Below are positions 6,308 to 54,079 of a DNA stretch of 64,000 nt, in pieces (position 1 is the stretch's first letter; each line of letters begins with the position of its first letter). The notes beneath the pieces were generated by a model, which saw only the letters and a list, made by a program, of their open reading frames with translations, searched no databases and was not told the origin of the DNA. Both the position numbers and the translations under genes were made by a program. Location: positions 4,860 to 68,859 of the forward strand of contig JAFWYK010000003.1 of assembly GCA_017517685.1 (NCBI GenBank), given 5' to 3'. The stretch is from Clostridia bacterium. Lineage in GTDB: Bacteria; Bacillota; Clostridia; TANB77; CAG-508.

Positions 6308-8491
6308 TTACTTATGGTCTCGTTTGGCTACGGTTTCTTTCCAAACTTTGTCCAAATCCTTTTCACTCATGATGCGATGTTTGAGAAGTGCTTCAACGAT
6401 GGCTTCAAGAACATCTCGGTTTTCTTCGAGAATTTGAGACGCACGTTCTTCAGCTTTCTTAACAAGCTTATTGACTTCTTCGTTGAGAGAGTCAATTACT
6501 TTTTCGGAATAGTTCGTGCTGTCACACTCATGGAGATATGCCCTGTTAGGACAATCATCACTAACCATGGCAAGTTTGCTTACGACGTAGTTCGCAACTC
6601 GGGTTGTAGTACGCAGGTCTGCACTCGCACCGCTAGTATAAACTTTGCGGAAGAGTTTTTCTGCCATACGTCCACCGAGGTGAAGTGCCAGATCATCGAT
6701 GTAGTAGTCAATGCTACAGAAAGGAACGACAGTGTCGTCATCTTCGTAGACAGTGACGCCGAGGTAATCCTCAGCAGGCATGATAGAAACAGCTTGCCAA
6801 ATATAGCGAGTGAGTCTACCAGATGCTTTACCAACGATGTAGTGGCCGGCCTCATGATAAGCAACCTCTTTGCGAGATTCGTCACTCATCTTATCCCACA
6901 TCTCAAAGAAAATGTCGAAAGTTCTGAGAATACAGGTCTTATCGACTTTCTTTTTGCCATGACGCTTAGCATATACCATTGCTCTATCAATCAGATCCAG
7001 AGTCTTGTCCGGATTCTTCTTCTCAAAAGCAAAGCAGCCTGCAATCATAACAGCGTAAGTAACCATATCGCGAGAAATAGTTACCTTGTGGAATTTAGAG
7101 AGTACCGCGATCTTGTTTTTGATCATCGGATATACTTTGTTTGCCAAAGGTTCTTTGACAACGACTTTTTCGAAACGTCTCGAAAGAGCGCCGTCACGCT
7201 GGAAGTACTTTTCGTATTCTTCCTGAGTGGTTGCACCAAGAACGATAGTATCGCCTCGGGCAAGGATCGGTTTGAGTGCATTTGCAAGATCCATTTCGCC
7301 TTCAAAGCAGGATCCAGCACCTAAAATGGTGTGAACTTCATCGATAAACAGAATGATATCATCATTATCCTGGAGGAACTGAATCAAATCTTTGATACGT
7401 TCTTCTGCGTCGCCGCGGTAGGATGTACCAGCGATCAGCGCGTTAACGTCAAGAACGACCATTTTGTGTTTCTTGAATTCAGGCGGACATTTGCCGCTAA
7501 CGATATCATAAGTCAGTTTTTCAATCAGTGCAGATTTACCTACACCGGGTTCACCGACGATGACCGCGTTACGTTTGTTTTTCTTGAGCATAATATTCCA
7601 AAGAATATCAGCCTCTTTGTCTCGACAGAGAATCTCACAAGGAGCTTTACCATCGATTTTTTCATTGAGTGTACTCAAGAATCCAGCAAGCTGGAACGGA
7701 ATTACTCCGTAAACGAGAATGCGATCAGGGTGGAAGTGCTTTTTAGCATCATCATAGTTACAACTGAGTACGCAGAAGAAATCGATGAAATCATCGTCAT
7801 CGGTCATGAACATAGCCGAAATGAAATGTAACGGCTCGATTTCAGTAATACCGAATTTTGCGATAATCTTAAACAATTCTTCGATAACTTTCTCAACGGC
7901 AGGATCAACCGGTACAACCAGTTCTTTTCCTTCGTGATCAGTAAACGTAATCAGAGTGACGATGTCGGGGATATCCTCGTCGGACTCATCAGAATCGGCA
8001 TCGGATTCATTATCTTTGCCTTTTTCAGATTCATCCAGAAGTTCTTCAACAGATACTTCTCCAGGAATTTCCTCAAGCTCTTCGCCAGAGTCTGTAGCAA
8101 TTTTCTTGCTGGGGTCATTGGCATCTGTCTGCTCACTGGTAGTAGTAGGTGCTGCTTCAGAAGCATCAGCTTCTTTTGCTTCAACCTTACCAGGTTCAGA
8201 TTTGCCGTCTTCGGGTTTGCCAGATGCATCTTCAGTTTTCTTCTTGGGCTCAGAATCACCAAATATGTCTGAGATTGCGTCTTCGATCTCCTTGGGAGTC
8301 ACACAATCATCAAGACCAAAAAGGTAATTTTCAAGAGCACTATATACGGAGCCTTCATCGCTCGTATCTACTGCGCCCCAGAGCAGAAGAGGAAAATTAA
8401 CCGAAGATAACTTCCGGTTTTGCATTTCTTCCAGAATGCTTTTAAACATTTCACTGGAAGCTGCAGATAACTTTTGCTCAAAATTTGCCAT
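6308..8491 (-). CDS. Soluble Clp-N / Clp-Hsp100 D1-type AAA+ ATPase fused to a C-terminal FtsH-like M41 zinc-peptidase domain
   Basis: - Two Clp_N-like repeats split by a ~110-aa acidic low-complexity insert.
- Walker A GEPGVGKSALIEKL, Walker B ILFIDEVHTILGAG, and Clp-D1 signature GDTIVLGATTQEEYEKYFQRDGALSRRFEKV.
- C-terminal HEAGHYIVG plus LGGRMAEKLF...SGASADL, as in FtsH peptidase M41.
- No TM segment.
- 40-43% GC in spot counts. Confidence 0.8.
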   Translation of the reverse strand: MANFEQKLSAASSEMFKSILEEMQNRKLSSVNFPLLLWGAVDTSDEGSVYSALENYLFGLDDCVTPKEIEDAISDIFGDSEPKKKTEDASGKPEDGKSEPGKVEAKEADASEAAPTTTSEQTDANDPSKKIATDSGEELEEIPGEVSVEELLDESEKGKDNESDADSDESDEDIPDIVTLITFTDHEGKELVVPVDPAVEKVIEELFKIIAKFGITEIEPLHFISAMFMTDDDDFIDFFCVLSCNYDDAKKHFHPDRILVYGVIPFQLAGFLSTLNEKIDGKAPCEILCRDKEADILWNIMLKKNKRNAVIVGEPGVGKSALIEKLTYDIVSGKCPPEFKKHKMVVLDVNALIAGTSYRGDAEERIKDLIQFLQDNDDIILFIDEVHTILGAGSCFEGEMDLANALKPILARGDTIVLGATTQEEYEKYFQRDGALSRRFEKVVVKEPLANKVYPMIKNKIAVLSKFHKVTISRDMVTYAVMIAGCFAFEKKNPDKTLDLIDRAMVYAKRHGKKKVDKTCILRTFDIFFEMWDKMSDESRKEVAYHEAGHYIVGKASGRLTRYIWQAVSIMPAEDYLGVTVYEDDDTVVPFCSIDYYIDDLALHLGGRMAEKLFRKVYTSGASADLRTTTRVANYVVSKLAMVSDDCPNRAYLHECDSTNYSEKVIDSLNEEVNKLVKKAEERASQILEENRDVLEAIVEALLKHRIMSEKDLDKVWKETVAKRDHK

Positions 8492-16493: not shown

Positions 16494-19292
16494 ATGGGAG
16501 AAAGAAGAAGATTAAATATAGCGGATGTTATAGCATCACCAGTATTAGTAGGAAAAAATGATAAGTATATGTGGACAGGTGTGGTAAAATCAAGCGATAT
16601 AGATCCATACTTAATTAATGATGATAAAATAAGAGAACGTTTTACAAAACTTGTCAGAGAATATGAAAATGCAATACTAGAATATAGACGTATGGCAAGT
16701 AGTGCAATGGGACCAAAATTAAAAATGAATCCACTATCTATTTTAGACTTAGGAGAACAAGAAGCAAAAATAAAAGAACTAGGTGCTAAAATAAAAGAGT
16801 ATTTAGGTAATCCAGATGCATATGATTTGGATTTTGACTTATTCTTGGTTCAAGTTTGTAGAGACTACGAAGAAATTAAATCTAAAAATCCAGATGAATT
16901 TAAAGCAATGAGAAAAGAAGATAGAAAAACTTTAGAAGAATTATATGATTATATTTCATCTGAACCATCAATTAGAGAAGTATATAATGATGAAGAAAAT
17001 AAATATTATGCATATATGTTTTTAACACGTAAACAAGAAAAGTTATATTCTAAAGATACTCAAGATAGTACTAAAAAATTATTAAAAGTTTTAGAAGCAA
17101 TAGCTGGTAAAAGTGATTTATCTAAAGAAGAAGGTATAGAAATATTAAAAGAGATTGGAGCGCCAATTACACTTATTGACCTTCATGATATATTCCCATG
17201 TGCTAAATATGCTGATGTACAATATGTAACTGTATTTAAAAATTATCTTTTACAAAAAGGGTTTTCTCAAGAAGAAGTACAAAACATGGACCCTGATACA
17301 ATAATGGAAGAAGCAATGAAAACATATAATTCAGATTCAATTGATTTTCATTCAAGTATGATGGCAGATGTAATAGTAAATGGTATTAAGTATATTGATG
17401 TAGAAAAATTAATGTTATTATCAGCAATAAGAACAATAGAAGCATATGACATGATGTTACCAAAAGTAGAAGATCATGAAAAAGCAGCTGAAATAGATCT
17501 AGATGCAATAAGAGAAATGGAAGAACTAGAAAAAGGTGCTGAAGAATTATCAGATAAGTTTATAAGACAAGAAGCATCTATTGACTCTGTATTAGAAAAA
17601 ACAAGAAGATCAGAATTTATAATTAGAAAAATGATTGAATCAGGAGTAATCTCACCAAAAACAAGATTTACATCAAGACTAGAAGATAAAGGTGAAATAT
17701 CACTTAGAGTATTAGAGAAAAAATGTGAGAATTTCTGTGATGGTATATATTTAACAGATATTATAAAATCAAATTTAATTTATAAAGCATTTATTAATCC
17801 AGATGAAATGAGCACATGGTCAGATGAGCTTATGGATAGAATGAGCTTTACTGAAAATGATATTAAAATTTTATCTTTAATTAGCTTTGATAATATGAAA
17901 AGATTCTATGAAACAGGAAGATTAAACTTCGAATCTATTGGAGACTTTTTAGGAACAAGTGGTTCAAGAGAAAAAGCATCTCGCTCAATAATTGAAAGTG
18001 AAGATGAAATGGAAGCAAATAGAAGAGAAGTAATGCTTACAAATGCTGATAATGTATTAATCAATCTTTATAAATCAGGAATAACAAGTACTGAAGATTT
18101 AAGATATTACTTCCAAGGTGCTGCAATAGATGCTAAAGATATTATAAAACTTGAAGAATCACTTGAAGGTGAAGAACTTGCAAAATTTAAAGAAGAAATG
18201 AAAGAACATTTCGACTCAGAGCTTTTACTAGAAAGCTATAAAGAATATGTTGAAAAATATTTAGAATTTAAAGATTTTGAAGAAAAGAATCCAGAAGCAT
18301 TAGAAGAAATAGAAGCAAAAAGAAAAGCATTAAATAAAATGAGACTTGTTAAAGAAGAAACAAGAAGCTTGTATGCAAGATACACTGAAGTTCCAGAAGA
18401 CAAAAAAGAATTTGGAAATGACCTATTAGATATGTATTATGTAGGTATGGGCGTTGAAGATGATAAAATACTTCGTGAAACATTAAAACTACTTTACGAA
18501 GATGGATTAATAGGCCTAGAAAACATTGCATACTTAGAACCAAAATATATAAGACCAATGTTTGATAAATTATCTTTAGATGATGCTATGAAAGTAAAAC
18601 AGTCAATGAGCTTTGAAACATTAACAGAAATGTTTGATGATATATTTATTGATCCAGAGTTTACTGATGAAAGAAGATTTATAGCAGTAATGAACTTCTT
18701 TGGTGACGATACTAAAGAAGATGGTGATGCAAGAGAGTTTTATCTTGGTATGCTAGAAAATGATGCGAAAGAAAAGAAAGCAAGACCATCAGGTAAGAAA
18801 CGTGAAAAAGGTGATAATACATATGCACCAGGTAATAAATATGTATATCCAGATTTTGTTAAATGGAAATTCTATAAAGCAATAGATAAAGATTGTAGAG
18901 TAACAAGATATGCAAACGGATTTGTTGAATTTGCATCAAGTAAACTAGGAGCAAGAATTATAGAAAAATATTATGATGGTGATAAACCAGCATATGGTAC
19001 AGCAACATATATTCTATCTGAACAAGACTATAGAATGAACGAAGGCGACTTAATTACTATCGGACATTCTGGAGATGTAATGGAAAGTTCAGTACTAAGA
19101 GAAATTACACCAAGAAAAGATAGAATAGCTCATAGAACTCAAAGTGAAAATAGAACTTGGATGCATGATATGATAAGACACTTTGGAATCGATTTAGAGA
19201 AAATGCAAGATTCAAGATATAGCCAAGAAGAACTAAAAGAATTAAAATCAGTTCTAGAAAGATATAAAACAGAATACGAACTATTAGCTTAA
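16494..19292 (+). CDS. Large hypothetical protein (932 aa), acidic and helix-rich, with no recognisable catalytic motif
   Basis: Uninterrupted 2.8-kb ORF in backbone composition. No P-loop, TM or signal peptide seen. Confidence 0.55.
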   Translation: MGERRRLNIADVIASPVLVGKNDKYMWTGVVKSSDIDPYLINDDKIRERFTKLVREYENAILEYRRMASSAMGPKLKMNPLSILDLGEQEAKIKELGAKIKEYLGNPDAYDLDFDLFLVQVCRDYEEIKSKNPDEFKAMRKEDRKTLEELYDYISSEPSIREVYNDEENKYYAYMFLTRKQEKLYSKDTQDSTKKLLKVLEAIAGKSDLSKEEGIEILKEIGAPITLIDLHDIFPCAKYADVQYVTVFKNYLLQKGFSQEEVQNMDPDTIMEEAMKTYNSDSIDFHSSMMADVIVNGIKYIDVEKLMLLSAIRTIEAYDMMLPKVEDHEKAAEIDLDAIREMEELEKGAEELSDKFIRQEASIDSVLEKTRRSEFIIRKMIESGVISPKTRFTSRLEDKGEISLRVLEKKCENFCDGIYLTDIIKSNLIYKAFINPDEMSTWSDELMDRMSFTENDIKILSLISFDNMKRFYETGRLNFESIGDFLGTSGSREKASRSIIESEDEMEANRREVMLTNADNVLINLYKSGITSTEDLRYYFQGAAIDAKDIIKLEESLEGEELAKFKEEMKEHFDSELLLESYKEYVEKYLEFKDFEEKNPEALEEIEAKRKALNKMRLVKEETRSLYARYTEVPEDKKEFGNDLLDMYYVGMGVEDDKILRETLKLLYEDGLIGLENIAYLEPKYIRPMFDKLSLDDAMKVKQSMSFETLTEMFDDIFIDPEFTDERRFIAVMNFFGDDTKEDGDAREFYLGMLENDAKEKKARPSGKKREKGDNTYAPGNKYVYPDFVKWKFYKAIDKDCRVTRYANGFVEFASSKLGARIIEKYYDGDKPAYGTATYILSEQDYRMNEGDLITIGHSGDVMESSVLREITPRKDRIAHRTQSENRTWMHDMIRHFGIDLEKMQDSRYSQEELKELKSVLERYKTEYELLA

Positions 19293-41990: not shown

Positions 41991-43370
41991 ATGAGAAAAT
42001 CGATTGTAAGAATAGAAAGAATTGAGTTAATAAATTTTAAAAATGTTGAAAATGGATGTGTTGAATTTGAAAATTCTAAAGATAGTAATTTCTTATCTCA
42101 AATAATGGGGATATACGGTCAAAACGGATCTGGAAAGACAGCTTTAGTAAACGCGTGTGATTTTTTTAAAAAGATGTTAGAAGGTTTATCGATTCCGGAT
42201 GATGCTTATAATTATATTAATATTAATTCAGAAGAATCAACATTAAAGTTCGATTTATATGCAAGTTTTCAAAAAAATGAGTATAAAATTACTTATGAGT
42301 TTACATTTAAAAAATGCGAAGATAAAAAATTTGTAATTAGTAAAGAAAAGCTATCGGCAGCCAAAAGAAAAGAAAATGAATGGTCATCTAAAGTGGCGAT
42401 AATAGATTATGATATAGATAATCAAGAAGAATTATTTACGCCTAAATGGAGATATAACGAGATATTATCTAATAGTAAAGATAATATAGTAAATCTAAAA
42501 GTGGCTCAAAAAATTACTATTGAAAAATGTTCATCTTTTATCTTTTGTGATGAATTTAAAAATATTATAAATAGAGTTGAAAGTCAGCAAGATTTAATAA
42601 ATATACTTGATGTTTTAAAATATTTTGGTAGATACAATTTATTTGTTATAAGTAGTAACCATACTGGATTTATAAATATGAACATTTTAATGCCATTATC
42701 ATTTAGATTAGAAGAGAACGAACATATTTCTTCAGGGGATATTGCTGTTAGATTAGATAATATTTCAATAGTAAAAAAACCGATATTTGATTTAGCTAGT
42801 AATATTATAAAACAAATGGATGTTGTTTTAAAATATATTGTTCCTTCTTTAAAAATTGAATTATATAATTATGGAGAGCAACTTGATGAAAAAGGTGATA
42901 AAGGTGTAAAAGTTGAATTGGTATCAAAAAAGAACAATTGTAATTTGCCATTAAAATATGAATCAGAAGGTATTAAAAAAATAATATCAATATTAAGTGC
43001 ATTAATTGCAATGTATAATAATCCTTCAATTTGTATGGTTGTTGATGAATTAGATTCTGGTATATTTGAGTTTTTGTTGGGTGAAATGTTGAAGGTTATT
43101 GAAAATGGTGGTAAAGGACAATTGTTATTTACTTCACACAATTTGAGACCTTTAGAAGTTTTATCAAAGAATTCATTGTTCTTTACGACAACGAATTCTA
43201 AAAATAGATATATAAAACTTACTAACATAAAGAATAATAATAATTTAAGATCTGTTTATATAAGAAGTATAAATCTTGGTGGACAAAAGGAAGAATTGTA
43301 TGATGAAACTGATGCTTTAGAAATACAAAGAGCATTTAGATTGGCTGGTGATAAGTTAAATGCAAGATAA
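41991..43370 (+). CDS. ABC/SMC-like (AAA_15/AAA_21-type) ATPase
   Basis: Walker A GIYGQNGSGKTALV; signature-like ESEGIKKIISIL; Walker B ICMVVDELDSGI; H-loop LLFTSHN. Confidence 0.8.
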   Translation: MRKSIVRIERIELINFKNVENGCVEFENSKDSNFLSQIMGIYGQNGSGKTALVNACDFFKKMLEGLSIPDDAYNYININSEESTLKFDLYASFQKNEYKITYEFTFKKCEDKKFVISKEKLSAAKRKENEWSSKVAIIDYDIDNQEELFTPKWRYNEILSNSKDNIVNLKVAQKITIEKCSSFIFCDEFKNIINRVESQQDLINILDVLKYFGRYNLFVISSNHTGFINMNILMPLSFRLEENEHISSGDIAVRLDNISIVKKPIFDLASNIIKQMDVVLKYIVPSLKIELYNYGEQLDEKGDKGVKVELVSKKNNCNLPLKYESEGIKKIISILSALIAMYNNPSICMVVDELDSGIFEFLLGEMLKVIENGGKGQLLFTSHNLRPLEVLSKNSLFFTTTNSKNRYIKLTNIKNNNNLRSVYIRSINLGGQKEELYDETDALEIQRAFRLAGDKLNAR

Positions 43371-44037
43371 AAAAGTTGTATTATTTATTGTAGAAGGAAT
43401 TACTGATGAAACAGCTATAGGTCATATTGTAAAAAAATTAAATAAAGATAAAAAAGTATTTTTTCAAATAGTTCGTACAGATATTACTACACAAGATTCT
43501 AGTAATGTAGCAAATATTGAAGTAAAAATTAATAAACAAATTGAATTGTGTATGGAACAAATGCATTTTAAAATTAAAGATATTATAAAAATAATTCATT
43601 TAGTAGATTTGGATGGAGCTTTTGTAGGAGAAGATGTAGTTGTGTATAAAAATATACCTCAAATAGAGTATGATTTAGAACATATTTATACTTCTAATAT
43701 AGAGTTTATACGAAAAAGAAATCAAAAGAAAAAACAAATATTGAATAGATTAAGTTCAACCCAAAGAATTAGAGGTATTCCTTATAGTATTTATTATTTT
43801 TCAACTAATATGGAACATGTTTTTCATAATCAACAAAATGTAAAAGATGATGAAGAAAAATTTAATCTAGCCAATGAAATTCAAGATAAATTTTATGATA
43901 ATCCAGTAAATTTTATTGAATTTATTAACGATGATAAATATGCATTAAAGGATACATATGAGAATACTTGGGAATTTATAAAAAAAGGTAATAATTCATT
44001 AAAAAGATATACTAATTTCAACTTGTATTTTGAATAA
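43360..44037 (+). CDS. Toprim-like protein (RloB / DUF4435 / DUF4276 class)
   Basis: Conserved Glu in VVLFIVEGITDE and DxD in IIHLVDLDGAF give a Toprim E...DxD pattern. An 11-nt overlap with the ATPase gene implies translational coupling. Confidence 0.6.
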   Translation: MQDKKVVLFIVEGITDETAIGHIVKKLNKDKKVFFQIVRTDITTQDSSNVANIEVKINKQIELCMEQMHFKIKDIIKIIHLVDLDGAFVGEDVVVYKNIPQIEYDLEHIYTSNIEFIRKRNQKKKQILNRLSSTQRIRGIPYSIYYFSTNMEHVFHNQQNVKDDEEKFNLANEIQDKFYDNPVNFIEFINDDKYALKDTYENTWEFIKKGNNSLKRYTNFNLYFE

Positions 44038-44191: not shown

Positions 44192-44788
44192 ATGACAAAT
44201 TATCATTATATGACATCAAATGCGAGAATATCAGAAATGTTTGAAAAGATTCAAACAGCTGCACAACCAGCAAAATTTACTCATGAAGTTTTGAAAAATA
44301 TGGGGTTTGCGAGTTCTAATGACAGAGGTTTTATAAATGTTCTAAAAAATTTGCAATTTTTAAATAGTGATGGGGTTCCAACTTCAAATTATAATTTATT
44401 AAGAGATACTAATAAATCAAAGAAAGTGGTCGGAAAACAAATAAAAGAATATTATAAAGAATTATTTGATATTAATGTTAATATGAATAATGCTAGTGAA
44501 GATGAGGTAAAGGGCGTTATTTCTAGAGTTACAGGAAAAGAAGAAAAAGAAGTTAAAAGAATGTATTTAACGTTTAAAGCTTTATGCCAATATGGAGATT
44601 TTTCTGGATTAGAAGATGATAAAAAAATAACAGAAGAAACTCAAGCAATTCCTATAGATAATAAATTGAATGCAGTTGAATTTTCACCTGATTTTCATTA
44701 TAATATCCAAATTCATTTACCTGCTACTACTGATATAACTATTTATAATGCAATATTTAAAAGTATAAAGGAGAATTTATTTAACTAG
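44192..44788 (+). CDS. Hypothetical protein, possibly DUF5343 family
   Basis: N-terminal ...KIQTAAQPAKFTHEVLKNMGFASSNDRGFINVLKNLQFLNSDGVPT resembles my recollection of DUF5343. Its stop lies 1 nt before the next gene. Confidence 0.4.
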   Translation: MTNYHYMTSNARISEMFEKIQTAAQPAKFTHEVLKNMGFASSNDRGFINVLKNLQFLNSDGVPTSNYNLLRDTNKSKKVVGKQIKEYYKELFDINVNMNNASEDEVKGVISRVTGKEEKEVKRMYLTFKALCQYGDFSGLEDDKKITEETQAIPIDNKLNAVEFSPDFHYNIQIHLPATTDITIYNAIFKSIKENLFN

Positions 44789-44789
44789 C

Positions 44790-45368
44790 ATGGATAAGAG
44801 AAGGAAATTAAAAGAATTTGTCTTTAATGGAATGTTAATAAAAGATTCATTAAATGATTTGAAAAAACAAGGAATTAGAGTATTTGAAGATAAAGAAGAT
44901 ATAGATATTGACAAAAGTATGGAAAAAGATTTTAATCCTAAATTATGGTTTGCTGCAAATCAAATGGCTTCAATATATATAGCGTTATATTGTGCAGAAA
45001 ATATGCTTAGAGAATTTATAGTAGATAGATTATCAGAGAGTTATGGAGTTGAATGGTGGGATAAATGTGTTCCCAAAAAAGTTAAAGATGAAGTTCAAAG
45101 ATTAAAAAGCAAAGAAGAAAAAAATAAATATTCATCAAATAGATCTAATAGTAATATTGGATATACGATGTTAGGAAATTTAACTCAGATTATAATTACT
45201 AATTGGGATTATTTTTCAGATATTATTCCTACCCAAGCATGGATTACTTCTAGAATGGAAGATTTAGAGATGTCGAGAAATGTTATTATGCACACTGGAG
45301 TGCTACCGGATATTGAAAGAGAAAGAATTGAAAGTATTGTGCGAGATCTAGTAAAACAATTAGGATAA
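44790..45368 (+). CDS. HEPN-domain protein (Swt1-like type), predicted RNase
   Basis: Rx4H motif in LEMSRNVIMHTG near the C-terminus. An alpha-helical sequence with WW.K.VP..VK is typical of Swt1-like HEPN (recollection). Confidence 0.6.
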   Translation: MDKRRKLKEFVFNGMLIKDSLNDLKKQGIRVFEDKEDIDIDKSMEKDFNPKLWFAANQMASIYIALYCAENMLREFIVDRLSESYGVEWWDKCVPKKVKDEVQRLKSKEEKNKYSSNRSNSNIGYTMLGNLTQIIITNWDYFSDIIPTQAWITSRMEDLEMSRNVIMHTGVLPDIERERIESIVRDLVKQLG

Positions 45369-45461: not shown

Positions 45462-45875
45462 ATGGACTTATTAAAAGAAATGATGCCATATATAGTCTCT
45501 ATTATGACTGCAATAATATCTGGATTATGTTCATATAATGCGTCAAAGAAACAATTTAATCATGAATTGGATGTGATTAAAACTAATAATAAACATGATA
45601 TTAATAAATTGATGGAACAACATAAAATTGATATAGATAATTTAAAAGAAAAACATAAATTAGAAATGGAAATAAAAGAAAAAGAATACCAACATGAAAA
45701 AGAAATGATTGCGTTAAAAAGTAAAGTGTTAATGGATGAAAAAAATCAAGATGTAATGAATAATGCTATGTCAGGGATTCTTGAAAATATTTTTAATGAT
45801 ATTATAACAGGAAAAATGACAGCTAAAGATTTAGAAAATATATCAAAGCAATTTCCTTCACAAGATAAAAAATAA
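45462..45875 (+). CDS. Small membrane-anchored coiled-coil protein
   Basis: N-terminal hydrophobic helix PYIVSIMTAIISGLCSY followed by charged heptad-like repeats. Confidence 0.45.
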   Translation: MDLLKEMMPYIVSIMTAIISGLCSYNASKKQFNHELDVIKTNNKHDINKLMEQHKIDIDNLKEKHKLEMEIKEKEYQHEKEMIALKSKVLMDEKNQDVMNNAMSGILENIFNDIITGKMTAKDLENISKQFPSQDKK

Positions 45876-45882
45876 ATTGTAA

Positions 45883-46446
45883 TATAAATTAAGAACCAAC
45901 TGGAGAGCATTTCAAAACAGATGTGTTAAAGATTTAAATAATCCATTCTATTTAGATGTTGCTATGTTAAATCCAAGTGTAGAAGAAGTAATAGATCTAA
46001 TTCATAGTATGGGAGGAAAAGCATATCTTGCTCATCCATCATCATATTTTGCTAAAGTAGGAACTAAAGAAGAAGTAAAACTAGCATATGATAATACAAT
46101 TAAGTTTGTAAAAGATTTCTTAGCTAAGTTTTCTCCAAAGGTAAATAAGAAAACTCCTATAGATGGAGCTGAAATATATCACCCATCATATTTAGGAAAT
46201 ATAGATGTAATAAGTGAGATAAAAGAGTTAGTACAAGCTTATAGAATAGCATCATCAGGTGGTACTGATATACATGTAGATAAGACACTAGGTAAAGGTG
46301 AAACAGTAAGTTCTGATAGTTTAGATGGAACAGTAGTAAGAAATAAATTACGTAAGTTTAGATTATTAAGAAGAAAAGCAGTAAGTATAAGAGATTTAAA
46401 AAGTAAAGTAATAGATATTAAAGCTAAAGGTAAAGAAAGAGAATAA
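45883..46446 (+). pseudogene. 5'-truncated remnant of a PHP-domain phosphoesterase gene
   Basis: The frame is open from 45883, directly after the stop of the preceding gene, with no RBS. The sequence ...NPFYLDVAMLNPSVEEVIDLIHSMGGKAYLAHP...GAEIYHPS...GGTDIH is a C-terminal PHP half. Confidence 0.55.
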
Positions 46447-46528
46447 AGATTATGTAATCAAAAATAGGAATGAATATCGATTTGCTTTAAGAAAAAATGT
46501 TTGTAGTATATAAATTTTTGAAAATGAA

Positions 46529-46568
46529 AACAGGCAATTATCTAAGAAAATTGCCTGTTGATTTTTTT
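46529..46568 (+). terminator. Rho-independent terminator
   Basis: Stem AACAGGCAAT / ATTGCCTGTT followed by a T run. Confidence 0.75.
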
Positions 46569-46775
46569 CTTGAGAAATGCTAAAATACTTTTGTGAATTG
46601 ACTTTATATTTTAGCAAGTATTATTATGTTATTTCCTATCCTCATAATAACATTTGCTAAGAGCTTTGTGAATTGTTTTAATCAACTTTTAATTTAAAAG
46701 ATATATTTTTGTTAAAATGTAATCAAAATGATAAAGAAAATTCATAGAATGCGAATGAAAAGGAGGTAAAGAAAC

Positions 46776-46994
46776 ATGAAAAAATTAATGGAAGTAACAA
46801 AAGAAACAAAAACAGGAAGAAACATTAGCTTTAGAGATGTTAAAACAAATGAGAAAATGACAAGAACAGAAGTTGTTAGAAAAATTGAAAAAAATTTATC
46901 TCATTATGGTGAAAACTATTATGTTAGAAAACAAAATGGTTTAAAAACACCAGTATCAAAACCAGATGCAAAAACTAAAAATAATTTAGATTAA
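46776..46994 (+). CDS. Small basic protein (72 aa), possibly DUF3892-like
   Basis: AGGAGG RBS. The C-terminal ...YYVRKQNGLKTPVSKPDAKTKNNLD resembles my recollection of DUF3892; weak. Confidence 0.4.
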   Translation: MKKLMEVTKETKTGRNISFRDVKTNEKMTRTEVVRKIEKNLSHYGENYYVRKQNGLKTPVSKPDAKTKNNLD

Positions 46995-47001
46995 CATTAT
47001 A

Positions 47002-47041
47002 AAAGTAACCACAATTGTTATTGCGGTTACTTTTGGTTTTT
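47002..47041 (+). terminator. Hairpin terminator or attenuator between the small ORF and the large ORF
   Basis: Stem AAGTAACC / GGTTACTT followed by TTTGGTTTTTT. Confidence 0.6.
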
Positions 47042-47065
47042 TATAATAGAAAGAGAGGTACTAAT

Positions 47066-48721
47066 ATGGCTAATATTGATATTAACATTTTTAAAGCAGA
47101 AAAATTTTTTTCATATGAAGAAATTATTAGAAACATAAAAGAAAAATTATTTAGAAAGACAACAGATGTTGGAGAATGGAATGGCGAAGTTGCCATAGGA
47201 CATAATGTATTTAAATTATGCGCATTATATGGACATACAACCAATTCGATTGATGATAAAACATGGGAGAAAGGTTTTAAAGAAAATTTTGGATTAGAAA
47301 GTTCTACAGAAAAGAATTCAAATTCTTGCTATGGATATATAATAATTAATAATTCCAAAAATAGATATATATTAACTTTTGGTAGAGGAAATTCGAACAT
47401 AACAGAGTTAATAGATTATGAATTTGGACTTATTATGGCATCAAAAATGCTAAATGAATATAAATTAAAACTACAATCATCAAAATTTTATGGATTAGAT
47501 AAGAATAAATCTATTACGGAGTTTTCATTAGCTCAATTTAGAGGTACTATTGGAGAATCAGTAGATGCTTTAATAGGAGAAGTAGTAGAATACCCAGGAA
47601 GACATTGTATTGAAAATTTACAGGATATTATAGGTAAAGAAGTAAAATTTACAACAAGTGTATTTGTTGATGTTAAATCAGAAAACTTTGATATTGAGAA
47701 TATTTGCAAAATTATTTTAAATATAGAGGAAATTTATAATATATATGGTGAACGTGTATCAATTCCAAGACTTATACGCGTTAAGGAAAGAGAAATAGAA
47801 TTATTAACAGAATTAAATAATAAAGTTAATGAAAAAATAGCATCTAGAGATTTTGAGGATGGTAAAATGTGGATTTCCTTTTATGAAGTAAAAAATTCTC
47901 AAATTTATTTTAGAGATAATATTGATGGTTATAAAATTATGGAGGGAAGAAAAATTTTAGATGAATTGGATAGCATTTCTTTAGATAATATTTCTAATAT
48001 ATTAGAAGATAATAATATTCAAGACATTAATAAAATAAATGTTGTTGTTACTGATTCAGCAGGAAATAATTATAAATGTAAAATTTATGATTTATTAGAA
48101 TATACACTTAATTTGGAAGATCCTAATATTTATTATACATTATCAAGTGGAGTATGGTACAAGTATAATAAAGTATATATGGATACAATAAATCATGAAT
48201 TAGAAAAAATTAAAAGTATTACACAATTTGATGAAAGATATGACTATATAACAGAAGATATAGAACGTTATTCGTCACAACACATTGAGGAGCTTAAAAG
48301 AATTGTTGATCCTCCATATCCGGAATTAAAATATAACTATAAATATGCAAAAGAAAATGATGGAGTTTTATGTGATAGGAATACATCAAGTGGAATTGAA
48401 GTGTGCGATGTATATACAGAATATAACGGATTAACTCATGTGAAAATTGGACAACCTTCAGATTTTATCACTTGTATTAATCAATCAATAGATGGTCTAA
48501 CAGAATATACAGGGAATAAAGTTGCCGTACAGGATTCGTTAAATATTGGTGATACCAATAAAGTAACATTATTGTTAATTACTAAGAATAGAAGTGTTAT
48601 TAGTTCAGAAGATATTACAAAATTTGATTCTTTAAAATTTAAAATAAGATTAATAGAATGGGAAAAATTTGTAAGTGGACATCAATACAATGCTAAAATT
48701 ATAATTGCAAAAAAAGTATAA
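47066..48721 (+). CDS. Large hypothetical protein (551 aa), possibly the TIGR04141/DUF6119 sporadically distributed family
   Basis: AGAGAGG RBS before ATG 47066. The family guess rests only on size, the N-terminal pattern and the defence-island context. Confidence 0.35.
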   Translation: MANIDINIFKAEKFFSYEEIIRNIKEKLFRKTTDVGEWNGEVAIGHNVFKLCALYGHTTNSIDDKTWEKGFKENFGLESSTEKNSNSCYGYIIINNSKNRYILTFGRGNSNITELIDYEFGLIMASKMLNEYKLKLQSSKFYGLDKNKSITEFSLAQFRGTIGESVDALIGEVVEYPGRHCIENLQDIIGKEVKFTTSVFVDVKSENFDIENICKIILNIEEIYNIYGERVSIPRLIRVKEREIELLTELNNKVNEKIASRDFEDGKMWISFYEVKNSQIYFRDNIDGYKIMEGRKILDELDSISLDNISNILEDNNIQDINKINVVVTDSAGNNYKCKIYDLLEYTLNLEDPNIYYTLSSGVWYKYNKVYMDTINHELEKIKSITQFDERYDYITEDIERYSSQHIEELKRIVDPPYPELKYNYKYAKENDGVLCDRNTSSGIEVCDVYTEYNGLTHVKIGQPSDFITCINQSIDGLTEYTGNKVAVQDSLNIGDTNKVTLLLITKNRSVISSEDITKFDSLKFKIRLIEWEKFVSGHQYNAKIIIAKKV

Positions 48722-49061: not shown

Positions 49062-50003
49062 ATGGATAAAGAGAAAAACGAAATAATTATATTTGAAAAT
49101 CAAGATGTAAAGTTAGAAGTTAATTTAAAAGAAGAAACAGTTTGGCTTACACAAGCACAAATGGAAATATTATTTGATGTAAAACATGCTACTATAAGTG
49201 AACATATTAGTAACATTTTTAAAGAAGGAGAATTGGATGAAAAAACTTCTGTCGGAATTTCCGACAAAAGTTCAGGAGGAAGAAAAGCTAAAATTTATAA
49301 TCTTGATGTAATTATAAGTGTTGGTTATCGTGTAAAATCAAAAAATGGTACTATTTTTAGACAATGGGCTAATAAAGTATTAAAGGATTATATGTTAAAA
49401 GGTTATGCAGTAAACCAAAGAAGATTAGAGTATTTAGAAAAAACTATTAAATTAATTGATATAGCAAATAGAATTGATGAAAAATTAGAAAATAATGATG
49501 CTAAAGAAATATTAAAAGTAATTGGTGAATATTCAAAAGCATTAGACTTATTAGATGATTATGATCATAAAACATTAAAGAAAATTAAAGGGAATATTGA
49601 TGAAAGAAAAATTGAATATAGTGAATGTGTAAAAATAATAAATACACTAAGATTTAAAGAAGAAAGTCAATTATTTGCAATAGAAAGAGATAAAGGATTA
49701 GAATCTATTATAGGAAATATATATCAAAGTTTTGCTGGACAAGATATTTATAAAAGTATTGAAGAAAAAAGTGCAAACTTTTTATATTTAATAGTAAAAA
49801 ATCATGTGTTTACAGATGGAAACAAGAGAATTGCAGCAACATTATTTATATACTTCTTAAACTTTTATGGAATACTATATAAAAATGAAAAACAAGTTAT
49901 TGATAATAATACATTAACAGCACTTACGTTATTAATTGCTGAATCAAATCCAAGAGAAAAAGAAGTAATTATAGATTTAGTAATGAATTTTTTAAATAAT
50001 TAG
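49062..50003 (+). CDS. RhuM-family N-terminal domain fused to a Fic/Doc domain
   Basis: RhuM core VWLTQAQMEILFDV...ISEHISNIFKEGELDE...YNLDVIISVGYRVKSKNGTIFRQWA. C-terminal Fic/Doc motif HVFTDGNKRIAA. Confidence 0.8.
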   Translation: MDKEKNEIIIFENQDVKLEVNLKEETVWLTQAQMEILFDVKHATISEHISNIFKEGELDEKTSVGISDKSSGGRKAKIYNLDVIISVGYRVKSKNGTIFRQWANKVLKDYMLKGYAVNQRRLEYLEKTIKLIDIANRIDEKLENNDAKEILKVIGEYSKALDLLDDYDHKTLKKIKGNIDERKIEYSECVKIINTLRFKEESQLFAIERDKGLESIIGNIYQSFAGQDIYKSIEEKSANFLYLIVKNHVFTDGNKRIAATLFIYFLNFYGILYKNEKQVIDNNTLTALTLLIAESNPREKEVIIDLVMNFLNN

Positions 50004-50014
50004 TAATAGAAAAT

Positions 50015-50049
50015 AAAAGAGTGGTATAAAAATACCACTCTTTTATTTT
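50015..50049 (+). terminator. Rho-independent terminator
   Basis: 12-bp stem AAAGAGTGGTAT / ATACCACTCTTT followed by a T run. Confidence 0.8.
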
Positions 50050-50068
50050 TACAATTATTATTGTTTTG

Positions 50069-50097: not shown

Positions 50098-50629
50098 AAT
50101 ATATGTAGGAAAAAAAGGAAAATAAAATTGAGTTTGCTATAATTATTTATAGTAATACATTGTAAGAAAAAGATAATCATGATTTATATAGAGTAATACC
50201 TATATTTAAAAGTGATAACTTATTAACATCTGGAGTATTAATATAGGCAAAAGATGTTGAAGTTAATGAAGAAGAAATAGAAATTTGCGTTAATTGGATA
50301 CAACTATTGCACAAACAATAAAAAAAGAATAAACAAGTACAAATTCATCTAGTTCTTTAACATAAACTAAAACTAAGCTTGCTACTATAATTAAACTATC
50401 TAAAACACTAGAAACTACCGCAATTCAATTAGCATTAGTAGTGCTAGTGCCTGTTTTTACATTAATAGTAAACACAAAAATGTTTTAGATTTTAAGAACT
50501 GGTAAAAAGTTTCATAATAATCCATGATGTAGAGTAATATGAATGATTCATTACAAGTTACTAGATTGCAAGCAGAAGCTAACGAATTTAGTGCGTGTAA
50601 AAATGTTATTAAAAGGGGGAAATGTAAAA

Positions 50630-53275
50630 ATGGAACATCTTAATTTACCATCAAGAATTTTTATGTATTCGATTTGTGCATCAATCGAATATGATTTAAA
50701 AGTTCATATACTATCATATTGCGAAGGAAAAATAAATTTTTCACAAGGTATGATAGATAAAGCTTATCAAAGATTAAATAGTAAGGATGAAAAAAGTGAT
50801 GAAAATATTTTAAATATGTTAGATTTATCAGATTATATATGCATATTAGTAGATAATCCCGTAAAGTATAAATTAAATAATTCTAATGTAGCAAAAATTA
50901 TTAAATATTTCGAAAAAATAATACCTATTAGAAATAGAGTAATGCATATTAAACCGTTAGAATTGGGGGATAAGGCAACATTACAAGAAGTAATGGAAGG
51001 TATTGATAAGGATATAAAATTTATTAATTGGGTAGAAGTAATAAAAAATAGAAAATTATTAGATAATAGTCCTGAAGAATTATTAATAAAATTTAAACCA
51101 AATAAATTTAATGATAATTATTATCATAATTTACCTGAAGCTGAATTTGACGATACAGGATATATTGGAAGAAAAAAAGAGCGAGCAGAGATTAAAGAAC
51201 TACTATTACAAGATAAATATCCAGTAATATCAATAATAGGAAATGGTGGAATAGGTAAGACAGCAATAATAGTAAAAACATTATATGACTTAATCGATGA
51301 TGCTAGTAATCCATATGAAGCAATAATTTGGATATCATTGAAAGCAAGAACTTTGTCTAATGGTGATTTCGTTGAAATTAAAGACTCTATAAAAACTACA
51401 ACTGAATTTATAAAAAATGCGGAGAAAGAGGTTGTAATGAATGAGAATTTATCTGCTGAAGATAATATTTTGAACTTTATGAAAACTTTTAAAACTTTGC
51501 TAGTAATAGATAATTTAGAAACAATTAATGATCAAGAAATAAATACATTTATAAAGAAAATTCCAAAAGAATCTAGAGTTTTGATCACCTCTAGAACAGG
51601 TTTAGGGGAATTAGAATGTAGATACAAGTTAGAAGGAATGAATAAAAAAGATGCAATACAGTATTATAGAGAACTTTCTAAGTATTATGGATTAAAATTA
51701 CATAATAAAACAGATGAAGATATAAGCTTAATCGTTGAAAAAGTATTATATTCAAATCCTTTATCAATAAAATGGTATATAACTGGCGTATATAATGGTA
51801 TTAGAGAAGAAGAAATTCAAAATAATAAAGAAAGTTTAATCGAATTTTGCATGTCAAATGTTTATGATAAATTATCGGATGAATCAAAAGAAATTTTGAG
51901 ATTATTTCAAATAGAAGATTATGAAATGTCTTATGGTGAAATTTCATATTATATTGATGGAGAAGAAATTGCAATGAAGAAAGCAATTAATGAGTTAAGT
52001 GCAACAAATATGATAACCTTAAAAGATGGTTGTTATCAAATTAATATGATGGCTAAAGATTATTTAAGAATAATACAAAAAATTGATTCTGAATTTATGA
52101 ATGTTATTAAAGATAAAAGATTAAAACTAAATGGAATGCTTCAAAATATAACCGTAAAAAAAGAAAATTCTAAATTAAACCCTGGCACAATAAGTTATGA
52201 TTATAATGACAAAGATCAAAAAATTGCAGCTATATATTTGTATAAAGCTTTAGAATATGGAAAAGAAAGAGATTCGGAAAATGCGTTGAAATTTGTAAAT
52301 AAAGCAGAAGAAATAGCTCCGAATTTTTCAGAATGTTATAAAGTTAAAGCGTTTTTATATGCTAATTTTGATAATTTGTCAGAGGCGATTAAAAACTATC
52401 AGATTGCGGTAAATAAATGTAAAACAGACTTAGAGTTTAGTACAGTGTATTATGCATATGCTTCATTTTATACTGTTGTTATGAATGATAACCAAAAAGC
52501 TCTTGAATTAATTAAATTAGCAGAAAACTACATGAAAGATGATATAGAAATAAGTTTACAAAAAGCAAGAATATTATCGAGATTAGGAAGATTTCAAGAA
52601 TCAGAAGATATATTAATAAAAACAGATTATAAAAATATAAATGCTGATAAAATTAGAAATGTTAGAGCTAAAGCTATAGGTGATTTATATAGATTATGGT
52701 CTGAGATATATGGATATAGGGACGATGATCAAAAATTAGATAAGTTAAAAAAAGGTATAAACGGAGTAATAGAATTAAATAATGTAGGAAATATTGATAA
52801 AAAAACTTATGCCACATTATTAGAGTTATTAAAGGAATTATCATATATGTTTTATAATAATGATGCGATGAAACTATTGCTACAAGTATTATCAGAATAT
52901 AAGAGTCAATTAAAGTCTTTAACTGGAAATACAATGAAAAGTATTGAAAAAATAATACTATCTCATAAAAATGAAATTAATAGTGATATATATAAGGAAT
53001 TGGAAAAAATAGTAATAGATTATAATAGAATAGCTAAAAAAATTGAGAGTGTAAATAAAGGTATTGTTGCATATATAAATGATAAATATGGTTTTATTTC
53101 TAATAGTATAAATAAATCAATATTTTTTATAAGAAATAATTTGAAAGAAAATGTTAATGTAGGAGACATTGTTAAATTTGATAGTTATGTTAGTAGCAAA
53201 GGAATTGGAGCGATGAATATAAGAAAAACTGGCGAAAATTTGATGGATTTTTATGATATCGAAGAAAATGATTAA
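50630..53275 (+). CDS. STAND NTPase: N-terminal HEPN-like domain, NB-ARC ATPase, TPR-like repeats and a C-terminal cold-shock-like OB domain
   Basis: - HEPN: Rx4H motif (IPIRNRVMH).
- NB-ARC: P-loop ISIIGNGGIGKTAI, Walker B LLVIDNLE, RVLITSRT and NPLSIKW.
- Sensor: helical repeats of about 350 aa.
- C-terminus: GIVAYINDKYGFISNS...FFIRNNL...VGDIVKFD...AMNIRK.
- Start: GGGGGA RBS before ATG 50630. Confidence 0.75.
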   Translation: MEHLNLPSRIFMYSICASIEYDLKVHILSYCEGKINFSQGMIDKAYQRLNSKDEKSDENILNMLDLSDYICILVDNPVKYKLNNSNVAKIIKYFEKIIPIRNRVMHIKPLELGDKATLQEVMEGIDKDIKFINWVEVIKNRKLLDNSPEELLIKFKPNKFNDNYYHNLPEAEFDDTGYIGRKKERAEIKELLLQDKYPVISIIGNGGIGKTAIIVKTLYDLIDDASNPYEAIIWISLKARTLSNGDFVEIKDSIKTTTEFIKNAEKEVVMNENLSAEDNILNFMKTFKTLLVIDNLETINDQEINTFIKKIPKESRVLITSRTGLGELECRYKLEGMNKKDAIQYYRELSKYYGLKLHNKTDEDISLIVEKVLYSNPLSIKWYITGVYNGIREEEIQNNKESLIEFCMSNVYDKLSDESKEILRLFQIEDYEMSYGEISYYIDGEEIAMKKAINELSATNMITLKDGCYQINMMAKDYLRIIQKIDSEFMNVIKDKRLKLNGMLQNITVKKENSKLNPGTISYDYNDKDQKIAAIYLYKALEYGKERDSENALKFVNKAEEIAPNFSECYKVKAFLYANFDNLSEAIKNYQIAVNKCKTDLEFSTVYYAYASFYTVVMNDNQKALELIKLAENYMKDDIEISLQKARILSRLGRFQESEDILIKTDYKNINADKIRNVRAKAIGDLYRLWSEIYGYRDDDQKLDKLKKGINGVIELNNVGNIDKKTYATLLELLKELSYMFYNNDAMKLLLQVLSEYKSQLKSLTGNTMKSIEKIILSHKNEINSDIYKELEKIVIDYNRIAKKIESVNKGIVAYINDKYGFISNSINKSIFFIRNNLKENVNVGDIVKFDSYVSSKGIGAMNIRKTGENLMDFYDIEEND

Positions 53276-53299
53276 TTTTTTAAAATAGGGTATTAGGAT

Positions 53300-53355
53300 G
53301 GGCTACTGTATCGAAAGGTATGCTGTTAAGAGTGATACAGTAGCCCTCTTTTTTT
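53300..53355 (+). terminator. Rho-independent terminator
   Basis: 13-bp stem GGGCTACTGTATC / GATACAGTAGCCC followed by T7. Confidence 0.85.
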
Positions 53356-53492
53356 AGATTAGTCACCAACTGAACTAAACTTTGTGTATAATAATATAGA
53401 AAATCAGATTTGTAAAGAAAAATCTGATTTTTTTACTATTTTTCCTATAGATTTATAAAATTTAGAAAAAAATTCAATTTTTTGAAAAAAAT

Positions 53493-53560: not shown

Positions 53561-54079
53561 ATGGTTGCAACGCAACAAAAAGTTTATTTTAGTTATTCTC
53601 ATAGGGAAGGAAAGAAGTTTAAAGTATTCTTAGAAGAAAATTTTAAGGACTTAATTTCAAACAAAACAGTAAGTGATGATGAGCTTAATCCAAAAAGAGG
53701 AGCAGACTACAGAGAAAAATTAGTTAATGAGGAGTATATTGACGAAAATACTTTACTTATAGTATTAGTAGGAAAAAGTACAAGATGTAAAAAACATGTA
53801 GATTGGGAAATATATACAGCCTTAAAAAATAATTGTTATGTAATTGGTGTAATATTACCAGAAATAAAAATGCCAAACGGAAGACTTGTATATGGTGATA
53901 TTCCAGCAAGACTTGCTGATAATGTTAAAAGTGGTTATAGTAAATTATATACATGGAATTATTTTATAAACTATTTTGAAGAAATTTTAGATACAGCTTA
54001 TCAAAACAAAATTGATTTAAAAGATAATATTAATAATAAAAGATCAATTTGGTTAACAACTGATGAAGAATACTGTTAA
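53561..54079 (+). CDS. TIR-like domain protein (DUF1863 / ThsB-like type)
   Basis: KVYFSYSH start and KKHVDWEIYTAL motif typical of the bacterial TIR-like DUF1863 family (recollection); AAGGAGG RBS. Confidence 0.55.
   Translation: MVATQQKVYFSYSHREGKKFKVFLEENFKDLISNKTVSDDELNPKRGADYREKLVNEEYIDENTLLIVLVGKSTRCKKHVDWEIYTALKNNCYVIGVILPEIKMPNGRLVYGDIPARLADNVKSGYSKLYTWNYFINYFEEILDTAYQNKIDLKDNINNKRSIWLTTDEEYC

Follow-up and report, generated by a model that had tools for sequence, protein, structure and literature searches.

STAND and NLR-like proteins of bacteria are a central theme in innate immunity, and the triggers characterised so far for these bacterial proteins are all phage proteins. Among the closest described systems are the Avs (AVAST) proteins, comprising Avs1–5 of Gao et al. 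and Avs7–24 as named by Lee et al. 2026 (PMC13581612), who describe 198 defence-associated STAND clades and report that Avs-type STAND proteins work through trigger-induced oligomerisation of their N-terminal effectors. Closer still in domain content are proteins described by Anantharaman, Makarova, Burroughs, Koonin and Aravind in 2013 (Biol Direct 8:15, PMC3710099), a computational study without experiments that lists 'STAND-ATPase, TPR, S1' fusions under Swt1-like HEPN domains, reports Bacillus cereus proteins with an N-terminal HEPN domain, a STAND NTPase and 'in some cases' a C-terminal cold-shock oligonucleotide/oligosaccharide-binding (OB) fold, and predicts for them a role as a defensive RNase system; the examples include Npun_F6454, MED222_16016, Desac_1927 and the B. 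cereus protein gi 229028907. Here we analyse a gene of this kind in a 64,000-nucleotide stretch of DNA from a Clostridia bacterium (assembly GCA_017517685.1, contig JAFWYK010000003.1, positions 4,860 to 68,859; hereafter the window). The coding sequence at 50630..53275 on the plus strand specifies 881 amino acids (aa) and a stop codon, and its product is a STAND protein with HEPN, NB-ARC, TPR and cold-shock domains. The gene is a new member, from a Clostridia metagenome-assembled genome, of the computationally described family; the best explanation is that it acts alone, as a chromosomally encoded NLR-like immune sensor of the AP-ATPase/NB-ARC branch within a defence island, and its product is probably a defence or abortive-infection protein with an oligomerisation-activated HEPN RNase.

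The four-part architecture of HEPN, NB-ARC, TPR and cold-shock domain (CSD) is almost certain. An AlphaFold2 model of the full-length protein (predicted local distance difference test score, pLDDT, 84.3) contains a helical bundle, an alpha-beta NTPase, helical domains, helical hairpins and a five-stranded barrel, in that order, and the Pfam NB-ARC match, family-level HEPN and CSD profiles and, for the NTPase and TPR parts, Foldseek comparison of the model support the assignment. A preliminary description of this DNA, made from its letters alone, had proposed these domains and an effector–NTPase–repeat layout like that of Avs and NLR proteins, and both proposals are borne out. Every peptide motif quoted there is found in the translation, namely IPIRNRVMH (aa 98–106), GNGGIGKTAI (aa 204–213), LLVIDNLE (aa 290–297), RVLITSRT (aa 316–323), NPLSIKW (aa 376–382) and the CSD-like string GIVAYINDKYGFISN...FFIRNN...VGDIVKFD...AMNIRK (aa 811–866). 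The further claim that the architecture is undescribed fails, as the combination of HEPN, STAND, TPR and S1 or cold-shock domains is already in PMC3710099. Our protein shares domain order and predicted role with the 2013 proteins, and we draw the family identity from architecture and taxon, not from sequence; B. cereus-group homologues found here are 44–46% identical to it and 865–871 aa long, some with a Pfam CSD match. Where PMC3710099 reports the CSD 'in some cases', it is nearly universal in the homologues examined here.

The reading frame is a genuine gene. Read from its first in-frame ATG, the frame spans 50543..53275 (+) and 910 aa; we rejected this longer version and take ATG 50630 as the start because homologues and a ribosome-binding site support it. 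Homologue N-termini all read M-x-x-L-N-L, matching the MEHLNL that begins at 50630, and a sequence AAGGGGG read at 50613..50619 (+) lies 10 nt 5′ of this ATG. A database protein with 100% identity has the identical start, and the 90% cluster of the 881-aa protein includes MBR3881837.1, a 'hypothetical protein' from a Clostridia metagenome-assembled genome. An open frame of about 900 codons in DNA of 24% G+C is far beyond chance expectation.

The central NTPase belongs to the AP-ATPase/NB-ARC branch of STAND NTPases. A conserved linker (YHNLPEAEFDDTGYIGR) and the NB-ARC nucleotide-binding domain occupy aa 165–335 (51122..51634, +), as defined by Pfam, motifs, the model and Foldseek. The Pfam NB-ARC model scores 43 bits against a cut-off of 23.5 (E 4.4e-11, aa 214–352 of the 910-aa frame), the NACHT model reaches 23 bits, which is under the NACHT cut-off, and PF00931 is already annotated on nearly all homologues. 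Conservation was scored in an alignment of 36 homologues with identities down to 41%, and in this set the P-loop GNGGIGKT (aa 204–211, 51239–51262, +) has invariant G204, G206, G207, G209 and K210, D294 of the Walker B motif LLVIDNLE (51497–51520, +) is invariant, and a sensor-1-like TSR of the RNBS-B type has invariant T320, S321 and R322. The following helical and winged-helix domains at aa 336–485 (51635..52084, +), defined by conservation and the model, contain a GxP (GLPL)-type motif, SNPLSIKW, with invariant P377, L378, I380, K381 and W382; in the model this region consists of helices and a beta hairpin (aa 462–471), and it aligns with CED-4 and plant NLRs. For the MHD-type histidine of the winged-helix domain, the nearest conserved stretch in the sequence alignment is M474-A-K-D-Y478, which has no His and in which M474 and Y478 are at least 90% conserved. 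Foldseek searches with the full-length model retrieved the STAND-TPR protein 6mfv (1.5e-12), CED-4 (2a5y, 1.2e-8) and ZAR1 (6j6i, 9e-8), together with Sr35, RPP1 and Roq1.

The N-terminal domain at aa 1–155 (50630..51094, +) is a Swt1-like HEPN domain and thereby a predicted RNase effector, an assignment made from profile, motif and published classification. Conservation marks its Rx4H catalytic motif as R-N-R-V-M-H (aa 101–106, 50930..50947, +): in the 36 homologues five of its residues (R101, N102, R103, V104 and H106) never change and the sixth, M105, is at least 90% conserved, a polar residue follows the arginine (R101-N102) as expected of HEPN motifs, and RNRVMH recurs across phyla in most of 63 genome loci. 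The Pfam model HEPN_Swt1 matches 16 of 24 family members, with a best E-value of 1.1e-4 and every score below the 27.5-bit cut-off. A broad N-terminal profile, made by adding distant representatives (108 sequences, Neff 6.4), matches the PF18731-positive family to which the stand-alone HEPN protein encoded at 44790–45368 belongs, in an alignment of 115 columns (hhalign 95.4%, E 2e-8). The call rests on this broad profile, the sub-threshold Pfam matches and the motif; direct BLASTP between the N-terminal region and the neighbouring HEPN protein gives E 0.13, which is too weak. The N-terminal model is all-alpha (pLDDT 86), and a lone match of the N-terminal profile to Cmr7 among PDB sequences (E 0.011) was judged spurious. 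The suspected resemblance to the 44790–45368 protein, a member of Pfam HEPN_Swt1 and PADLOC PDC-M34B, is real at the profile level (hhalign 95%), and the two proteins share an RN-x-x-MH-T motif and a single island. They differ in that PDC-M34 is a two-gene candidate system whose 192-aa HEPN protein has no NTPase, repeats or CSD.

The C-terminal half joins a short repeat scaffold to a single small barrel. The presumed sensor scaffold consists of about 270 aa of TPR-like helical-hairpin repeats (aa 528–800, 52211..53029, +), supported by Pfam, the model and Foldseek, within a post-NTPase region of about 395 aa in all. TPR models of Pfam match below their cut-offs (TPR_19 at 6e-4, TPR_15 and TPR_14), the AlphaFold2 model has regular helix pairs at aa 528–802 forming about seven hairpins at pLDDT of about 90, and Foldseek places the repeats with Tom70/71, OGT and APC/C TPR proteins at 1e-4. 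This region is the most variable of the protein, with 40% mean pairwise identity compared to 58% for the nucleotide-binding domain. The CSD follows at aa 806–868 (53045..53233, +), defined by profiles and the model, with an acidic tail at aa 869–881. For the window copy, Pfam CSD (PF00313) scores 19.2 bits against a cut-off of 27 (E 1.1e-3) and is thus sub-threshold, PADLOC CSD_V matches at 7e-5 and an NCBIfam model for the retron Se72 effector at 1.2e-4. A family profile of the last 70–80 residues matches 44 solved CSDs, including Unr (5.8e-14), CSDE1 (9e-9) and CspA/CspB (about 1e-5), and PF00313 is already annotated on many homologues. G811, G821, I823, N825 and F833 are invariant and F822 is near-invariant; the modelled strands run at aa 810–816, 820–824, 831–834, 847–855 and 858–866 (pLDDT about 87), and the RNP1 motif of CspA/CspB (K-G-F-G-F-I) is kept as (Y/F)-G-F-I, shorter by one residue. 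The acidic tail (53234–53272, +; alignment A1 columns 921–939) carries a conserved (I/L/M)-x-(D/E)-F pattern, for example NLMDFYDIEEND, KVEDFYSED and AIEDFMDT; it occurs in a clostridial subgroup whose members are at least 53% identical to the window protein, is absent in Bacillus-type members, and might serve autoinhibition by mimicking nucleic acid or else bind a partner.

The same architecture recurs far beyond Clostridia. A word-indexed search found 684 relatives, and the best 120 of these are nearly all 860–880 aa long, come from Clostridia, Bacillus, Priestia, Halobacillus, Macrococcus and others, and are named in their sources merely as 'NB-ARC domain-containing' or 'tetratricopeptide repeat' proteins. 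A pattern scan of one genome per species (about 185,000 genomes) yielded the 63 loci noted above, of which those in Bacillota are full length at 39–59% identity and those in Bacteroidota, Alpha- and Gammaproteobacteria, Acidobacteriota, Chloroflexota and Myxococcota have 24–35% identity. Intact loci nearly all encode 850–960 aa; RNRVMH lies about 110 residues into these proteins and the P-loop about 100 residues further on. An exhaustive profile search with the HEPN domain returned, at the 50% identity level, 433 of 1.84 billion cluster representatives, always with the HEPN domain N-terminal and with full-length proteins of 780–1045 aa. The CSD is kept in all Bacillota homologues examined; at the C-termini of distant homologues from Bacteroidota, Proteobacteria and Acidobacteriota, Pfam finds a CSD in nine of ten, five above cut-off and two with a second CSD. 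The alphaproteobacterial homologues from Bradyrhizobium and Microvirga (945–951 aa; loci L022, 9983–12820, and L037, 9740–12595) apparently end in two tandem CSDs by Pfam. Because protein length, motif spacing, the CSD and the N-terminal position of HEPN recur across phyla, the four-part architecture is old and fixed, and because the CSD is kept across phyla, we see it as integral to function, a core component and not an accessory.

Comparison with described systems places the protein beside the Avs proteins without assigning it to one of their named families. It shares with Avs/AVAST proteins a single chain of N-terminal effector, STAND NTPase and C-terminal helical-repeat sensor as well as a defence-island location, and activation by trigger-induced oligomerisation is expected here too. 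However, solved Avs structures are not among the top 50 Foldseek matches and the NTPase groups with CED-4 and plant NLRs, the effectors featured in Avs papers are DNases (with SIR2, TIR or nuclease alternatives) and not a predicted HEPN RNase, and Avs sensors are longer than the short sensor that here ends in a CSD. None of the AVAST models in PADLOC-DB v2 matches, the matches found being CSD_V and a weak PDC-M13B. The earlier suggestion of an Avs-like antiviral STAND protein accordingly holds for layout and island location and is not supported for membership of a named Avs family, and the RNase and antiviral role remains a prediction from sequence. Antiphage bacterial NACHT proteins are likewise STAND-based, and HEPN is listed among their effectors in the part of Kibby et al. 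(bioRxiv 10.1101/2022.07.19.500537) considered here; they belong to the NACHT clade, in contrast to the NB-ARC domain of our protein, and the passages concerned do not describe a CSD. CSD-type OB folds also occur in retron Se72 (type V) and in CoCoNuT type IV restriction systems, in the latter beside HEPN nucleases and in both with a predicted action on RNA or single-stranded DNA (ssDNA), but the partners differ (reverse transcriptase and multicopy single-stranded DNA, msDNA, in the retron; an McrBC GTPase in CoCoNuTs), and the CSD alone is in common, at E of about 1e-4. Cold-shock and S1 domains are RNA-binding modules of NTP-dependent conflict systems (Kaur et al. 2020).

The surroundings of the gene and its homologues point to a mobile accessory role. 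The window comes from the chromosome of a sporulating, low-G+C Firmicute and carries genes for RNase R, a tRNA methyltransferase and a Spo0A-like protein as well as a polysaccharide cluster, and a defence island spanning 41.9 to 54.1 kb of the window includes the STAND gene. An AbiLi-like ATPase with a DUF4276 protein, PDC-M34A/B, a PDC-S23 RhuM/Fic protein and a ThsB-like TIR protein all lie within 9 kb on either side of it. Around 50 homologous loci, neighbours include AriA-, AbiL-, PtuA- and GajA-type ATPases, methyltransferases, MazF, integrases, resolvases and transposases. The Clostridium muellerianum homologue adjoins an AAA_15/AAA_21 ATPase pair in an element with serine recombinases and D5-type primases, the Priestia homologue adjoins a pair of an AAA ATPase and a DUF6414 protein, and the Planococcus homologue lies on a 65-kb plasmid beside RelE and MazE modules. 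Pfam and PADLOC families each occur in at most five of the 120 nearest flanking proteins of the 50 loci, no conserved partner gene emerges, and a multigene system was rejected. The pattern is that of a mobile, stand-alone accessory gene with defence association.

Toxin-antitoxin genes in this inventory bring up a selfish addiction module, in which a HEPN toxin restrained by the STAND and TPR parts would stabilise the island or plasmid rather than act against phage. HEPN domains are indeed frequent toxins of toxin-antitoxin systems (PMC3710099), and MazF, RelE and MazE modules, recombinases and transposases occur nearby. Yet no antitoxin gene is conserved next to the family, a sensor apparatus of about 700 aa driven by ATP is hard to account for in such a module, and the effector-bearing STAND proteins that have been tested behave as inducible immune receptors, so that we consider addiction extremely unlikely.

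How the protein would act as an oligomerisation-activated HEPN RNase can be laid out from its parts. HEPN RNases, among them RNase L, Ire1, Csm6 and Cas13, need two Rx4-6H motifs facing each other, and because the composite HEPN site has this requirement, induced proximity would activate the RNase. In RNase L and Ire1, which act in antiviral RNA decay, a repeat or sensor domain and a nucleotide-binding regulator are joined to a HEPN RNase that stays inactive until a ligand induces dimerisation or oligomerisation. The overall logic would be the same here, with the differences that their regulator is a (pseudo)kinase and not a STAND domain, their HEPN domain, of the KEN family, sits at the C-terminus, and an OB fold is missing; both are discussed in PMC3710099. 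By analogy with STAND biology, the protein would rest as a closed, nucleotide-bound monomer until its TPR–CSD module binds an infection-specific ligand, which might be a phage protein on the TPR repeats, single-stranded RNA (ssRNA) or ssDNA on the CSD, or both. Ligand binding would lift autoinhibition and allow the NB-ARC domain to oligomerise with ATP, as in Avs proteins (PMC13581612), and the P-loop, Walker B motif, sensor-1 arginine and GxP motif that such a switch would use are all intact. The oligomer would bring HEPN domains face to face and switch on a metal-independent endoribonuclease, and cleavage of cellular RNA, phage RNA or both would lead to growth arrest and aborted infection. 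In this scheme the CSD would either feed ssRNA to the nuclease or belong to the sensor.

Several results weigh against this reading and temper it. At the effector, the window copy itself has no Pfam HEPN match, narrow N-terminal alignments are too weak to connect with the Swt1-HEPN family (hhalign 29% and 5%), and Foldseek of the N-terminal model against the PDB and BFVD finds nothing significant, with Csm6 (4rgp) at E = 7; we count this Foldseek null neither against HEPN nor for it because the method resolves small helical bundles poorly. Profile searches thus place NB-ARC above cut-off and recover HEPN and CSD through family profiles, while the window copy alone has a sub-threshold CSD and no HEPN match, and structure prediction with Foldseek supports the NTPase, TPR and barrel folds and leaves the N-terminal bundle without a significant HEPN match. 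At the NTPase, Walker B reads hhhhD-N-L-E, with Asn where a second acidic residue is usual and the invariant E297 three residues on; because of this Asn, ATP hydrolysis may be slow or unusual, or may use E297. At the CSD, RNP2 (V-F-V-H-F) keeps F833 relative to CspA/CspB and has its His and second Phe replaced, which makes nucleic-acid binding plausible and not assured. A literature search found no experimental study of this protein family, no PADLOC v2 model matches the protein beyond its CSD, and none of 50,697 phage genomes carries a copy. The defence association of homologues is read from a plain neighbour inventory, in which beside the defence-type and mobile neighbours many homologues adjoin housekeeping genes such as ribonucleotide reductase, urocanase and purine biosynthesis genes.

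This last observation, that part of the homologues sit among metabolic genes, would also suit a housekeeping or stress function in RNA surveillance, with the protein serving as a regulated RNase for cellular RNA or for translation stress such as cold shock or stalled transcripts. CSDs are the classical module of RNA chaperones in cold shock, and HEPN domains take part in RNA quality control in eukaryotic Swt1, Las1 and Ire1 (PMC3710099). A patchy distribution (433 clusters in 1.84 billion; 63 loci in about 185,000 species genomes), unconserved synteny, copies on plasmids and integrative elements, and the position of the window copy within a dense defence island all speak against this function, and we regard RNA surveillance as very unlikely.

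For the defence protein that we favour, the main choice concerns its ligand and with it the role of the CSD. Our tentative preference is that the CSD holds or recruits RNA substrate for the HEPN domain; a part in the sensor, with a nucleic-acid trigger, is a possibility we hold somewhat more loosely, and another role, for instance in autoinhibition or in placing the protein on transcripts or ribosomes, seems rather unlikely. The sensor option stays in play because the repeat region is short and CSD retention near-universal. It leads to a variant of the defence reading with a distinct mechanism, in which the CSD, with the TPR repeats, reads phage ssRNA or ssDNA such as replication or packaging intermediates or abundant transcripts, not protein, and RNA binding would nucleate oligomerisation and HEPN activation. 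The CSD is found in all Bacillota homologues and nine of ten distant ones, some with two; the repeat sensor of about 270 aa compares with at least 400 aa in the protein-sensing Avs proteins of Lee et al.; RNP1 keeps its aromatics and RNP2 its Phe; among solved structures the RNA-binding CSDs of Unr/CSDE1 match best; and the msDNA-based retron Se72 uses a CSD protein as effector or partner. Nevertheless, the bacterial STAND sensors characterised so far all recognise proteins, the low sequence specificity of CSDs leaves self/non-self discrimination unexplained, the RNP2 His/Phe are lost, and substrate recruitment fits a CSD beside an RNase equally well, and we judge nucleic-acid sensing unlikely. 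The full proposal of a cross-phylum NLR-like receptor that uses a CSD-built sensor to detect phage ssRNA or ssDNA, not protein, and answers with an oligomerisation-activated HEPN RNase is, if anything, a little more doubtful.

The single-gene character of the defence protein extends to its transcription. Upstream, the RhuM/Fic gene ends in an intrinsic terminator at 50009..50050 (+), a 19-bp perfect hairpin with a T run (−23.3 kcal/mol, z = −9.3), which is the 5′ boundary of the STAND gene's transcription unit; downstream, the STAND gene has its own intrinsic terminator at 53295..53357 (+), a 14-bp stem in an extended hairpin with a T run (−25.9 kcal/mol, z = −4.7). With strong terminators on both sides, the gene forms its own, monocistronic transcription unit. 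A 620-bp spacer lies upstream of it, and an Rfam scan of the whole window matched no RNA family, so no riboswitch or non-coding RNA is tied to this spacer.

The island opens with a gene pair at 41991–44037 (+), joined by a stop/start overlap, that encodes an AbiLi-like AAA_21 ATPase (PADLOC AbiLi 2.7e-28) and a 225-aa protein with a weak DUF4276 match and looks like an AbiL/OLD-type pair. The two-gene PDC-M34 candidate system follows at 44192–45368 (+), with a DUF5343 protein (PDC-M34A, 7e-66) and, 2 nt on, the 192-aa Swt1-family HEPN protein (PDC-M34B, 1.5e-64); the island thus houses two RNase effectors of paralogous class, PDC-M34B and the STAND N-terminal domain, 5 kb apart. Mid-island, a gene at 47015–48721 (+) encodes a 568-aa DUF6119 protein (Pfam 1.4e-30) with no PADLOC match, and this gene and the likewise unassigned small open reading frames at 45462–46994 may be defence genes that are not yet catalogued. 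The RhuM/Fic-domain gene at 49062–50003 (+; PADLOC PDC-S23, 1e-118) immediately precedes the STAND gene, with the strong terminator between them, and directly after the STAND terminator a gene at 53561–54079 (+) encodes a 172-aa ThsB-like TIR protein (Pfam ThsB_TIR 2.9e-11; PADLOC PDC-M50B/ThsB). The annotated neighbours of this orphan TIR gene include no recognised ThsA-like gene, and the next gene downstream encodes an extracytoplasmic function (ECF) sigma factor. Elsewhere in the window, the sole large minus-strand gene (6308–8491) encodes a 727-aa AAA+/peptidase M41 (FtsH-like) protein with a TniB-like ATPase match and sits in a 2-kb stretch at 41% G+C, compared with 22–32% elsewhere, that looks like horizontally acquired DNA; a 932-aa open reading frame at 16494–19292 (+) has no Pfam match at E ≤ 1e-5.

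What distinguishes this protein is a predicted metal-independent RNase effector in place of a DNase, SIR2 or TIR effector, a compact sensor and a near-universal CSD. If it is a protein-sensing Avs-type receptor with an RNA-tethering tail, it would add one further effector and sensor combination to a known class. If nucleic-acid sensing is true, it would parallel RNase L-type antiviral RNA decay in function and would be, to our knowledge, the first such prokaryotic STAND immune receptor. The residual interest of the family lies in its conserved CSD and in possible nucleic-acid sensing by a bacterial NLR, and the gene offers a clean single-gene candidate for asking whether such sensing exists and how a HEPN RNase comes to be licensed by oligomerisation.

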